Positions 41,342-54,927 of a DNA stretch of 64,000 bases are shown here, piece after piece. How positions within the stretch are numbered: position 1 is the stretch's first letter; every line of letters starts with the position of its first letter. The stretch is from Chloroflexota bacterium (GTDB lineage Bacteria; Chloroflexota; Dehalococcoidia; Lucifugimonadales; UBA3495). The translations under genes were made by a program, and so were the position numbers. Under the pieces are notes generated by a model. The model searched no databases. It was not told where the DNA came from and was given only the letters and a program-made list of their open reading frames with translations. Location of the stretch: assembly GCA_028875055.1 (NCBI GenBank), contig JAPPGG010000069.1:1140-65139 (forward strand), written 5' to 3'.

Positions 41342-44383
<3,042 letters not shown>

Positions 44384-44473
44384 ACGTTATGGACTCCAGA
44401 CACAGTGATAAGCTTTCAGGGCAATTACTCAGGGTTTCTTGTTCCGGTGTATTTACAAAATTTTCCTCTACGT

Positions 44474-44548
<75 letters not shown>

Positions 44549-50024: not shown

Positions 50025-50037
50025 GCACAAACTGAAA

Positions 50038-50312
50038 AAGCTATGATGGAGACGAGTAGGCAGGGCCCGGCGCTCAGCGAGCCTGGTATGGTGAGAGCAG
50101 GTACGCCAACCTTGTCGAAAATCCCTCCGGAGCTGCCAGCGGAACCGCGACTGTAGAGCTTTCAGTCGCTCAGTAAGCCAGGCCGAGGTTCGTCGCTCGT
50201 TATCCGTGACGGGGCATGTTGGTGCCTGCTAAGAGAGGTCCGGTTTGCCGGATAAATAGGGTGGTACCGCGGGAGCATTATATCCCGTCCCTATGGGGGA
50301 CGGGTTTTTTTA
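50038..50312 (+). promoter_or_regulatory. T-box riboswitch, probable Ile specifier (ATC), transcriptional type
   Basis: Stem I AGTA...AGCGA...GGTGAGA...GAA A ATC (50121-50123); CGTTA box; AATAGGGTGGTACCGCG T-box; terminator CCCGTCCC..GGGACGGG-T7. Confidence 0.93.
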
Positions 50313-50378
50313 TTGTCCTACGGTCGGCCTTCCCGATACCTTTCTCGGCGGCAGAACGCAAACGTTTTGGAGGCTGCT

Positions 50379-52076
50379 GTGAAACTTAAAGGATCGGAAA
50401 TAATCTGTGAAAGCCTGCTCCGCGAGGGTGTTGACGTAATTTTCGGCCACCCCGGCGGAGCAATTTTGCCCTTCTACGATGCTCTATGGGGCTATCCCCA
50501 GTTGAGGCACGTACTGGTCCGGCATGAACAGTCGGCTTCCCACGCCGCCGACGGGTATTCCCGGGTGACCGGTAAAGTCGGTGTCTGCGTAGCCACCTCG
50601 GGGCCGGGCGCCACCAATCTGGTTACCGGTTTGATGGGCGCCAAGGCCGATTCCGTCCCCATGGTTGCCATTACGGGCCAGGTCGCCAGGACGGCCCTGG
50701 GCTCTGAAGCTTTCCAGGAATGCGACATCTGCTCCATAGCGTCGGTATGCACCAAGCGGACCTACCTGGTAATGTCTGCCGCCGACCTGGCTCCCACCAT
50801 CAGGGAGGCATTCAAGGTAGCCCAGGAGGGACGTCCGGGTCCGGTGCTTATTGATGTTCCCCGCGACGTGCAATTGGAGCTGGCGGAGTTCGAGTACCCG
50901 GAGATTCCAGAATTTGCCAGGGAACCTCTTTCCGATGAAACCCAGGCCTCACTGGCGCGGGCGGCCCAGCTGATTAACGAGGCAGAACGTCCCGTGTTGA
51001 TCGCCGGCCACGGTGTGCTTGCTTCCCATGCGTGGGACGAACTGATGGAGCTGGCCGAAGCCACCGGAATTCCCGTCATCAACACCCTGCTGGGACTCAG
51101 CAGCTTCCCGCGAAATCATCCCCTGAGCCTGGGCATGCTGGGAATGCACGGCATGTACTGGTCCAACATCGTTGTGGACCAGGCCGATGTGGTCGTGGGC
51201 CTGGGAATGCGGTTTGACGACCGGGTGACCGGCCGCGCTTCCACCTTCGCGCCCCATGCCCGCATTATTCACCTGGATATCGAGCCCAGCCAGGTGGGTC
51301 GGAACGTGCCTGTGGAGGTCCCCCTGGTGGGGGACGCCAAGGTGGTAATGCGGTCCCTGATTCCCCTGGTAAAGCGAGTTGACCGCCCCCAGTGGATGAG
51401 CTATATCGAAGAATTGAAGAGAGACCATCCCTCTCTGGCTATTCCCAAGACCGACAGCCTGCTGGCACAGCACGTTCTGTCGGAAATGAATGAGTTGATC
51501 CAGGAAAACCCGGATACTGTCGTGGTGACCGGGGTCGGGCAGCACCAGATGTGGGCGGCCCAGTTCCTGTTCTTCAACGGCTTCAACACCTTTGTATCCT
51601 CCGGCGGTTTGGGAGCGATGGGTTTCGAACTTCCGGCAGCCATGGGCGCCCAGGTGGGCCAGCCAGGAGCGCCGGTATGGAGCATCGCCGGCGACGGTGG
51701 AATCCAGATGACATCCCAGGAACTGGCCACAGTCGCCCAGGAAAATCTGCCGGTGAAGATTGCGCTGATAAACAATGGTTACCTGGGAATGGTGCGCCAG
51801 TGGCAGGAGATGTTCTTCGAAAATCACTTGAAGGAAGTACCCATTCCTGGCCCCGAGTTTGTTAAGCTGTCTGAAGCCTACGGAATTCCGGCCGTTCGGG
51901 TGACACACCAGGAAGACGTGATGCCAGCCCTGCGCAAGGCCCAGGCCCATGAGGGCCCTTATTTGATAGAGTTTGTAGTGGACTATTCAGTCAATCTCTA
52001 TCCCATGGTGCCGCCGGGAGGGTCGCTGGGAGAGACGATGGAAGACCCTCTGACCTCCGGCGCCAGGATCGGCTAG
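50379..52076 (+). CDS. ilvB: Acetolactate synthase large subunit (biosynthetic)
   Basis: FGHPGGAILP, RHEQ, TSGPGATN, GMLGMHG, RFDDRVTG, GQHQMW, GDGG, GMVRQWQ; GTG start. Confidence 0.95.
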   Translation: MKLKGSEIICESLLREGVDVIFGHPGGAILPFYDALWGYPQLRHVLVRHEQSASHAADGYSRVTGKVGVCVATSGPGATNLVTGLMGAKADSVPMVAITGQVARTALGSEAFQECDICSIASVCTKRTYLVMSAADLAPTIREAFKVAQEGRPGPVLIDVPRDVQLELAEFEYPEIPEFAREPLSDETQASLARAAQLINEAERPVLIAGHGVLASHAWDELMELAEATGIPVINTLLGLSSFPRNHPLSLGMLGMHGMYWSNIVVDQADVVVGLGMRFDDRVTGRASTFAPHARIIHLDIEPSQVGRNVPVEVPLVGDAKVVMRSLIPLVKRVDRPQWMSYIEELKRDHPSLAIPKTDSLLAQHVLSEMNELIQENPDTVVVTGVGQHQMWAAQFLFFNGFNTFVSSGGLGAMGFELPAAMGAQVGQPGAPVWSIAGDGGIQMTSQELATVAQENLPVKIALINNGYLGMVRQWQEMFFENHLKEVPIPGPEFVKLSEAYGIPAVRVTHQEDVMPALRKAQAHEGPYLIEFVVDYSVNLYPMVPPGGSLGETMEDPLTSGARIG

Positions 52077-52139: not shown

Positions 52140-52544
52140 TTGGAAGAAGTTACTATTCAGGAGGCGTCTCGGCGCTTGAATGTGTCGCAGGACATCATCC
52201 GTCGCTACATCCGTGAAGGACGATTGAACGCCCGAAGACGGTCAAGTGAGGAAGGCCGGGCCTGGGTCGTTGAAATGCCGGAAGATGGCTGGCAGGACGA
52301 TAAGAAGGACCATATAGACGACCTAGCCCGGCAGCTGACACCCTGGTGGTGGCCCAACCCCTACAAGAGGGGTGAGGTCCATTACGTTGAAAGCCTGGGA
52401 ATTGAGGAAGTGGAACCCATTTACCTGTGCGGAATGACGTCGGAAGACTTCTGGCCGGCCGTAGGGCATTCTGTGGAACAACGATGTCCGATCTGCGTCG
52501 ATGAGGTCAGGCACCGGGGATTGCCGATGGAAACCCGGGAATAG
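52140..52544 (+). CDS. Excisionase-like HTH protein with a C-terminal putative Zn finger
   Basis: TIQEASRRLNVS..IIRRYIREGRL; H...LCG...CPIC. Confidence 0.75.
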   Translation: MEEVTIQEASRRLNVSQDIIRRYIREGRLNARRRSSEEGRAWVVEMPEDGWQDDKKDHIDDLARQLTPWWWPNPYKRGEVHYVESLGIEEVEPIYLCGMTSEDFWPAVGHSVEQRCPICVDEVRHRGLPMETRE

Positions 52545-54134: not shown

Positions 54135-54486
54135 TTTCGATCTCCGTCAGATAATAGTCGAACTCGTTGTCATCGGTAACCAGGATGGCCTTGGGCCGGA
54201 CCGGTTCGTCAGTAACCTCAAAGGCCATGATGATGACCTTGTTGCCGGGGTTGGTCAGCTTGGCTGCTGCTCCCTGCACGGAAATGATGCCGCTGCCCCG
54301 TTCGCCGGAGATGGCATAGGTCTCAAACCGGGCGCCGTTGTTAACGTCACAAACCAGTACCTTCTCGTACTCCCAGATATCCGACTTGTCCATCAGATTC
54401 TGGTCGATAACAATGCTACCAATGTAGCTCTCGTCGCAGTTGGTGACCGTCGCCCGGTGAATCTTGGACCTCATGAGTTGTCGCAT
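54118..54486 (-). CDS. panD: Pyruvoyl-dependent aspartate 1-decarboxylase family protein
   Basis: [14 protein letters not shown] self-cleavage site, [15 protein letters not shown]; RBS AAGGAGGAG. Confidence 0.92.
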
Positions 54487-54892
54487 GTATTTCTCCTCCT
54501 TGTTTTTTCCAGTCGATTCCGATTTGGTTGTGAGTTAGAAAGCGCACAAGTCTCTACAGCCGGGGCTCAAAGAGCTACCTGGTAGAGTCGTTCCACACCT
54601 TTTGAATACGTTGCGCTGATGTTCTAGCGACTAAGTATCAGCCACACTTGCCCAACAAAGACTCTATGTTGTTCAACGTGGAGGGAGCTAATGCTCGCAG
54701 GGGAGTTGGCGGCTCGGTAGAGAGGCTGTGTTTCCGAAGTAGGTGAAAAAACGCCGGGAATTGATATCGTACCTTGACCCGGCACAGAAGTTCTTCTGCC
54801 TTTCGGGCTCCGTAGAGTAAGGGATGACCTTACCCTGCCGTGCTAAACTTACACGCATCCTTGGATACCCCCTTATGCTTAGGGTGCGTTGT
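54487..54892 (-). ncRNA. Candidate structured 5' leader of the panD-methyltransferase operon
   Basis: About 405 nt between promoter and start codon, with many hairpins and mutually exclusive pairings. Confidence 0.5.
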
Positions 54893-54898
54893 TAGGGC

Positions 54899-54927
54899 AT
54901 AATACTTTCATCCAGTACCATTGTCAA
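54899..54927 (-). promoter_or_regulatory. Sigma70 promoter for the panD operon
   Basis: Minus strand TTGACA-17 bp-TATTAT. Confidence 0.8.

Follow-up and report, generated by a model that had tools for sequence, protein, structure and literature searches.

Why should a gene for an aspartate decarboxylase be preceded by a transcribed leader of about 400 nucleotides (nt)? The question is raised by a 64,000-nt stretch of a Chloroflexota genome (Dehalococcoidia, Lucifugimonadales, UBA3495; GenBank assembly GCA_028875055.1, contig JAPPGG010000069.1, positions 1,140 to 65,139), here called the window, in which the minus strand carries a promoter, a long leader and an operon of panD followed by two methyltransferase genes (MT1 and MT2; Table 1). 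An earlier note on this DNA had read the leader as an unrecognised cis-regulatory RNA that switches between mutually exclusive pairings. Here we report that the leader contains a conserved open reading frame (ORF), and that it is best read as a new, sequence-unrelated family of a known kind, the regulatory leader peptides, surrounded by lineage-specific RNA structure. To the reading that this is a cis-acting leader peptide which would pause the ribosome at termination, in the manner of TnaC and SpeFL, we assign a probability of roughly 0.6. Coordinates are window positions on the minus strand unless stated otherwise.

The leader was compared in 19 orthologous intergenic regions, in the 25 non-redundant leaders obtained once further contig loci had been added, and, most widely, in 60 leaders from the window's genus, other genera of its family and one other family. 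When 61 related genomes were searched at the DNA level, 19 had the leader, and all 16 other genomes of the genus carried it at 71–99% identity and nearly full length, while two other genera contributed short blocks. The gene order was constant in all leader-bearing genomes (amidohydrolase, intergenic region, panD, MT1, MT2), with the amidohydrolase gene divergent to the panD operon and transcribed from 55078. The near-consensus promoter proposed in the earlier note stands, as TTGACA and a −10-like hexamer were present in register in 25/25 non-redundant leaders; the sequence upstream of the −35 element was unconserved, and conservation of the leader began directly after the promoter. In one genome (locus L014, G003) an insertion of about 430 nt lies between the amidohydrolase gene and the promoter, upstream of the −35 element, with promoter and leader intact. 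The promoter spacing predicts a transcription start near 54892, as against a panD ATG at 54486.

That so long a leader is indeed transcribed was seen in a sponge metatranscriptome, where a contig from a relative (approximately 93% identical) ran from within panD (54367) through the leader to about 54874–54877, at which point Illumina adapter sequence followed (depth 356). The RNA thus includes the whole leader and has its 5' end far from the panD start codon, the opposite of the nearby start that the earlier note had named as an outcome against its proposal. The RNA boundary, some 15 nt downstream of the predicted start, would be compatible with that start given the loss of extreme 5' ends in libraries. 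Further contigs of the same relative extended into the downstream genes and none reached over the promoter; three more (X1, X3 and X8) covered parts of the leader at low depth and were uninformative on its ends. As this evidence consists of contigs, expression levels and 3' ends are not readable from it.

Evidence for a coding frame came from the pattern of change within the leader. The ORF was open over 54–57 codons in 19/19 orthologous intergenic regions and in 25/25 non-redundant leaders; in these 25 its own frame had no stop, whereas the alternative frames had 40 and 46, each spread over 23 sequences. Its middle is highly variable, yet insertions and deletions come in multiples of three (54, 56 or 57 codons); when the ORF middles were shuffled, they stayed open in 0.23–0.82 of each sequence's trials, and the fractions of 14 representative lineages multiply to 1.5e−6. 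Towards the end of the frame, a block near 54740–54688 is strongly conserved and its variation is almost confined to every third base: the mean pairwise differences by codon position were 0.10/0.14/0.41 and 0.00/0.03/0.20 in two 30-nt windows of the last 20 codons, and the numbers of extra states by codon position were 16/18/33. The ORF has a Shine-Dalgarno sequence of its own, GGGGG (54872–54868), 9 nt before the ATG, which reads GGGGG or GGAGG in relatives and is spaced as at panD. In other genera, AGGAGG stands 4–7 nt before the ORF ATG in nine leaders, and a core match of at least 5 nt was found in 11 of 35. Gene callers predict the ORF in public records, and 13 relatives of the peptide were retrieved from a protein collection, all unnamed and of 56–57 residues apart from one of 73. 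This longer protein (P0001, from one contig) changes frame after ...TASLP and continues for 25 more residues, owing to a frameshift in this copy or to an error of assembly. At E-values up to 10, four members of the peptide set matched no Pfam or NCBIfam family, except for one match at chance level. Taken together, these patterns of codon change point to translation of the ORF, which would place a small translated frame in cis, upstream of the regulated genes and on one transcript with them, the arrangement of arrest-type leader peptides.

The part of the peptide that is conserved is its very end. Counted backwards from the stop codon in the 60 leaders, position −5 was L, I or V and position −4 was P in all of them, position −3 was C in 59, position −2 was E in 56 and position −1 was P in 54 (H in five, T in one); the stop codon itself was TAG in 54 (TAA in five, TGA in one), the base following it was C in 52, and basic residues were frequent at positions −7 to −12. 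Synonymous codons differ within this ending (CCT/CCA/CCC, GAG/GAA, CTC/CTG/CTT), which indicates a constraint on the peptide; CCC and TGC hardly vary. Between genera the rest of the ORF, 32–78 codons from the best candidate start, is unrelated, and only the last 5–12 residues are conserved. What is conserved is therefore the C-terminus together with the stop, while the remainder varies, as is the case in arrest-type leader peptides. The stop of the ORF lay 146–328 nt before the panD ATG in all leaders, and when the genes downstream of other leader copies were listed, as the earlier note had advised, the ORF was followed by the same panD-MT1-MT2 order in 24/24 contig loci.

The wider occurrence of the ending was assessed at 42 loci around MT1 genes. 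These belonged to other genera and to a single genome beyond the family, which a class-wide sample had returned. The fetched stretch held a panD start at 38 of them (and none at the remaining four), and at 30 of these 38 an upstream ORF ended in PCE(P/H)-stop, while five others had the variants PCET, PCNP (twice), PCGP and PYGP; two loci were without the ending (L076, and L080, which ends in LPSNP), and one had only 112 nt upstream. A profile of the whole peptide found the ORF in only four genera (26 of the 151 genomes of the family), whereas relatives of MT1 were present in 124 of the 151. Applied to a class-wide sample of 401 genomes, a profile search returned the window's genome together with weak matches (E-values from 4.5e−4 to 9e−3), several with internal stops, that were taken as chance, and a profile scan of metagenomes yielded two true loci as well as two twelve-residue matches, rejected for being out of frame within the gene of a 396-residue oxidoreductase. 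The pattern CCCTGCGAGCCNTAG matched 27 times in 401 genomes of the phylum, never beside panD or methyltransferase genes, and six inspected matches were out of frame or antisense within ordinary genes; a looser pattern gave one match in the window's genome, again with no panD or methyltransferase neighbours. A limited check of the literature returned no account of a leader peptide before panD, nor of this operon in these bacteria.

An ORF in cis, conservation limited to the last residues and the stop, a final proline and a spacer before the first structural gene form a four-part pattern that matches leader peptides acting at termination. In the passages of PMC12360218 on such peptides, TnaC and SpeFL stall at the termination codon and mask a Rho loading (Rut) site, and in CruR the stalled ribosome shields a Rut site within its own ORF; parts of PMC8450073 describe terminal prolines as common in arrest peptides, and according to a section of PMC7246954 a C-terminal proline slows termination. 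One close likeness is to TnaC of the tnaCAB operon of Escherichia coli, which is also an upstream small ORF with few conserved residues, a final proline before the stop and a few hundred nt between it and the first structural gene; its Rut site adjoins the stop, where the stalled ribosome shields it (passages of PMC12360218 and PMC8450073). Here, by comparison, UAG takes the place of UGA as the usual stop, most of the C-rich stretch falls within the ORF, the host belongs to the Chloroflexota and stalling is a proposal. SpeFL, which precedes speF (the gene for ornithine decarboxylase) in E. coli and Salmonella, shares the position of a leader peptide ahead of an amino-acid decarboxylase gene, and it too stalls on its stop and masks a Rut site (same passages of PMC12360218); by analogy, the substrate or the product of PanD could be the signal in our case. 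The sequences of the two are unrelated, however, and the present operon encodes a pyruvoyl-type aspartate decarboxylase with two methyltransferases; any ligand sensing is putative. CruR of Bordetella pertussis resembles the leader in its stop-codon stall, which shields a Rut site inside a small ORF, and in having cysteine and C-terminal proline motifs (PMC12360218, in part), but it carries CXXC and RAPP and responds to copper, whereas the peptide described here has a single cysteine in P-C-E-P and no link to metal genes. PepNL of E. coli likewise blocks release of the nascent peptide at the stop codon, but the portion of PMC11890864 that describes it presents it as inducer-free and relieved by read-through of UGA, and its sequence is unrelated. 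The Pfam and NCBIfam scans revealed no homology to the TnaC or SpeFL families; the sequences of these two were not compared directly.

Under the termination-pausing reading, RNA polymerase would start at the conserved promoter and a ribosome would translate the 56-codon ORF. At the ending (L/I/V)-P-C-E-P followed by the stop (mostly UAG, then C), peptide release would be slow or conditional, and the ribosome would be held on the stop codon. A held ribosome, possibly with a queue behind it, would cover the C-rich and G-poor end of the ORF, the candidate Rho loading site, and with the site covered, transcription would continue into panD and the two methyltransferase genes; prompt release would leave the site exposed, and transcription would end in the spacer of 150–330 nt. 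Shielding of a Rho loading site is favoured as the read-out because a C-rich, G-poor stretch surrounds the stop and the genome holds a Rho gene (597.7 bits). Over this stretch, 40-nt windows had C fractions of 0.35–0.45 and G fractions of 0.12–0.20; from −60 to +25 around the stop, the 60 leaders averaged 0.40 C and 0.18 G, as compared with 0.28 and 0.25 further downstream. In the consensus structure just five weak pairs fall between 54753 and 54667, leaving the C-rich end largely unpaired. As an alternative read-out, the C-rich stretch might pair with the ribosome-binding site of panD, which a stalled ribosome would set free. It does pair with that site better than most windows of the leader (median rank 0.16, 19 of the 60 leaders in the best tenth). 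A long-range helix and a 5' hairpin, present in the window's genus and in three sister genera, may in addition allow the ORF to be translated only while the leader is still being made. Aspartate, beta-alanine or N-methylated products, and ionic conditions, are the candidate signals. A more specific version, which we regard as tentative and rather doubtful, would make this an arrest peptide that senses a metabolite, with a sequence family of its own and no earlier counterpart in Chloroflexota. Its ending and the ribosomal tunnel would jointly build a pocket for a small molecule of the aspartate/beta-alanine/N-methyl-beta-alanine pathway, as with ornithine in the case of SpeFL; in the four genera, completion of the leader would then let the long-range helix close the ORF start and leave the decision to co-transcriptional ribosomes alone.

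Several points weigh against a pause at termination. The ORFs measure 45–86 codons from the best start, as opposed to the 24 residues given for TnaC in parts of PMC8450073, and are also longer than SpeFL. The final residue of the window's own peptide is His and not Pro, and so it is in five of the 60. The start of the ORF is uncertain in many other genera, with 24 of 35 leaders lacking a clear Shine-Dalgarno sequence and one lacking a start in the fetched stretch. As all loci are orthologous, the link between the ORF and panD amounts to a single evolutionary event. Stalling is deduced here by comparison with other systems. As for the read-out, the C-richness could follow from the codons for Pro, Arg, Leu, Ser and His, and we know of no study of Rho-dependent regulation in this phylum. 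Unmasking of the panD Shine-Dalgarno sequence by a stalled ribosome was tried as a model and rejected, since full-length folds of the 25 leaders gave a mean unpaired fraction of 0.40 when free, 0.40 when stalled and 0.39 with a control footprint. A terminator-like hairpin with a U run occurs in only 6 of the 60 leaders, so intrinsic termination is not the common read-out; one such candidate in the genus, a U run after GCGCGC, was present in part of it and absent from the window. A short G+C hairpin (e.g., CCCGG-TTT-CCGGG) just under the terminator threshold was observed 20–35 nt after the ORF stop in three leaders of another genus (L063–L065, genus g12), of which L063 alone has a U-rich tail after it.

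If the ORF is translated, its product might instead work in trans, partnering or activating PanD or a methyltransferase, or serving as a scaffold or precursor peptide with a working C-terminus. A conserved gene with its own Shine-Dalgarno sequence, always first in the operon, predicted by gene callers and specifying an invariant cysteine would suit such a protein. Conservation of only the last 5–12 residues, with a middle that varies in sequence and, between genera, in length, would be unusual for a folded protein, though, and a trans-acting product does not need a conserved stop codon and a conserved base after it. The peptide matched no Pfam or NCBIfam family, and the operon has no typical peptide-modification enzyme. 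The operon's gene content also fits an ordinary supply of beta-alanine: panD is the sole PF02261 match in the genome (98% complete), and panC and panB lie elsewhere (contigs C68 and C50), so that the operon must supply beta-alanine for pantothenate and, in addition, the product or products of the two methyltransferases. Complex prediction of the peptide with PanD, MT1 and MT2 returned a score of 0.00, which is no answer and counts as evidence neither way. On balance we judge a trans-acting protein unlikely.

The ORF could also be translated without any specific arrest, either for attenuation through a shortage of charged tRNA or for simple translational coupling, where any passage of ribosomes over the ORF would remodel the leader, and its ending would then reflect needs of the RNA, such as a rut site or an anti-Shine-Dalgarno sequence. 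The pairing of the C-rich last codons with the panD ribosome-binding site described above, the near invariance of CCC and TGC, and a long-range helix that ties translation of the ORF start to a downstream site are all in line with this. The features of classical attenuators (trpL, hisL, pheL) do not characterise the set, however: the peptides contain no run of any single codon, and the terminator-like hairpins are as scarce as noted above. Furthermore, Leu, Glu, the last Pro and the stop undergo synonymous changes that preserve the peptide while altering the RNA, which weighs against an ending shaped by RNA needs. An ORF without arrest is accordingly quite improbable in our estimate.

The remaining contender is the RNA itself. 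As a whole, the leader did not fold better than expected, its minimum free energy of −123.6 comparing with a mean of −119.6 in 100 dinucleotide shuffles (z = −0.80; 18 of the 100 were as good). Local structure was recovered by RNAalifold from 16 leaders of the window's genus. The 3' domain consists of the helices TAGAGTC/GACTCTA (54666–54660 with 54589–54583), TTGGGC/GTGTGG, GATAC/GTATT and CGCT/AGCG and of a hairpin at 54582–54560; CGCT/AGCG covaries to CGCC/GGCG, and GATAC/GTATY is also conserved. Across the genus leaders, 96.3% of the cells in the consensus pairs could pair, versus 31–46% with slid partners, and double changes were counted in 20 cells, where shuffles gave 8.8 and 0 of 500 reached 20; they were distributed over only six pairs. 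A long-range helix of 12 bp connects codons 2–5 of the ORF, which are invariant at synonymous sites, to a segment near panD; 96.8% of its cells were paired, and 6 of its 12 pairs change on one side (GC/GU, UA/UG) and none on both. In three further genera, codons 4–7 find their complement in another segment lying about as far from panD (e.g., CGTGATAAAC). As the duplex z-scores against shuffled 5' strands were modest (mean −1.5), the case for this helix is made by RNAalifold, the constant position and the one-sided changes, and not by strong covariation. The 5' hairpin would, as modelled, cover the Shine-Dalgarno sequence of the ORF; five of its six pairs never vary, and pair counts thus neither support nor oppose it. 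A sequence profile of the 3' domain found only the 17 leaders of the window's genus, and one of the 5' element with the long-range helix only four genera. Being limited to one or four genera, these helices look like lineage-specific additions rather than a sensor; the single element shared throughout the operon's range is the small ORF with its (L/I/V)-P-C-E-P ending.

Of the pairings on which the earlier proposal of a switch was built, the hairpins are present in the window (AGGGTAAGG/CCTTACTCT at 54836–54814, GCAGAA/TTCTGT, GCCGGG/CCCGGC and GCTGAT/ATCAGC), as are the three copies of CTCTAC and the single GTAGAG. The switch itself, CTCTAC/GTAGAG against ACAGCC/GGCTGT, is lost in relatives, the corresponding positions reading CTCTCC and GGCAGAAGAA in most of the genus, and three copies of some hexamer in 441 nt is about chance level by our own estimate. 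GCTGAT/ATCAGC is restricted to the closest relatives of the window and competes with the conserved GATAC/GTATY and CGCT/AGCG. The covariation check that had been suggested gave a divided answer, with some covariation in the genus helices and none of the listed switch pairings kept; like the missing family match and the distant 5' end, it does not refute a regulatory leader. The absence of a known RNA family was borne out. Among 4227 Rfam families, scanned at the gathering score and by E-value, none matched the leader at the gathering score, including SAM-I, SAH, ydaO (c-di-AMP) and T-box; between 54400 and 55100, E-values up to 10 brought only a chance-level match to a eukaryotic long non-coding RNA exon, upstream of the promoter, and eight orthologous loci gave no matches within the leader at E-values up to 1. 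The same scan detected a T-box leader at 50034–50295 on the plus strand (RF00230, 107.4 bits, gathering score 93), directly before an acetolactate synthase-like ORF (50313–52076), which shows that the search works on this genome. With those riboswitch and leader families the panD leader shares its length, conserved helices and biosynthetic genes downstream, without matching any of them. What survives of the earlier proposal is a long, conserved and transcribed leader without a known family, and what does not is an RNA-only sensor acting through the listed pairings. A riboswitch binding S-adenosylmethionine, the operon product or an ion, with the ORF incidental or secondary, could claim the covarying genus helices, the long-range helix and the RNA constraint on the first codons, but is in our view very unlikely, because a pure RNA element would neither keep a 56-codon frame open nor vary at third positions, its helices reach one or four genera where the operon and the peptide ending span the family and beyond, and the unremarkable whole-leader fold, the unconserved switch and the Rfam scans all count against it.

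Table 1. Features of the panD leader and operon, with positions in the 64,000-nt window
Feature	Position	Strand	Basis
Sigma-70-type promoter, TTGACA-17-TATTAT (TTGACA 54927–54922; TATTAT 54904–54899)	54927–54899	minus	11/12 matches to consensus
5' hairpin, GCACCCT (54887–54881) / GGGGGT (54872–54867)	54887–54867	minus	RNAalifold, 16 leaders
Leader ORF, 56 codons and TAG, predicted peptide MRVSLARQGKVIPYSTEPERQKNFCAGSRYDINSRRFFTYFGNTASLPSRQLPCEH	54858–54688	minus	Open frame in all orthologous leaders
Long-range helix, 5' strand (ORF codons 2–5), GCGTGTAAGTTT	54856–54845	minus	RNAalifold, pairing with 54553–54542
C-rich, G-poor stretch (last ~22 codons and stop), candidate rut site	54756–54680	minus	Base composition, consensus structure
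Peptide C-terminal end L-P-C-E-H (L-P-C-E-P in most relatives) and TAG (54690–54688)	54705–54688	minus	Comparison of 60 leaders
Structured 3' domain	54666–54560	minus	RNAalifold; double changes in 5 pairs
Long-range helix, 3' strand, AGACTTGTGCGC, 54–59 nt before panD ATG across the genus	54553–54542	minus	RNAalifold
panD ribosome-binding site GGAGG (54499–54495) and ATG (54486–54484)	54499–54484	minus	AGGAGG invariant in orthologs
Operon: panD (54486–54118), MT1 (54134–53313), MT2 (53269–52643)	54486–52643	minus	Profile matches

The genes of the operon were assigned by profile matches. PanD scored 122.4 bits against TIGR00223 (cut-off 106) and also matched PF02261, and its gene overlaps the start of MT1. 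MT1 is a class I methyltransferase whose best NCBIfam match was a sarcosine/dimethylglycine N-methyltransferase, far below the cut-off of that model; its nearest PDB relatives were MitM and 2o57 (a putative sarcosine dimethylglycine methyltransferase), and that of MT2 was METTL27. From this gene content, the product of the operon may be an N-methylated beta-alanine, e.g., beta-alanine betaine. Several genomes of genus g2 (e.g., G465:C1:2147917-2149655) carry two tandem copies of MT1 after panD. Just past the end of the operon, a plus-strand ORF of 134 residues (52140–52544) had a weak match to a helix-turn-helix of the MerR/excisionase type. Elsewhere in the window, a 23S rRNA gene (41342–44384, plus strand) is followed by a tRNA gene (44474–44545), with no 5S rRNA gene between or after them at the gathering score.

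To our knowledge, few nascent peptides regulate genes through a block on their own release, and Proteobacteria and Firmicutes supply nearly all of them. A family unrelated to them in sequence and with a sharp five-residue ending would be a fresh case of the ribosomal tunnel and the peptidyl-transferase centre reading a peptide, and it lends itself to study in vitro although the organisms are uncultured. For annotation, the locus is an example of a coding regulatory element concealed within a 'structured leader' and invisible to searches for RNA families. The peptide ending was found in many related marine bacteria, and a leader peptide of this kind would mark the sole aspartate decarboxylase gene of these genomes, placed in an operon with two N-methyltransferase-like genes, as a regulated step.

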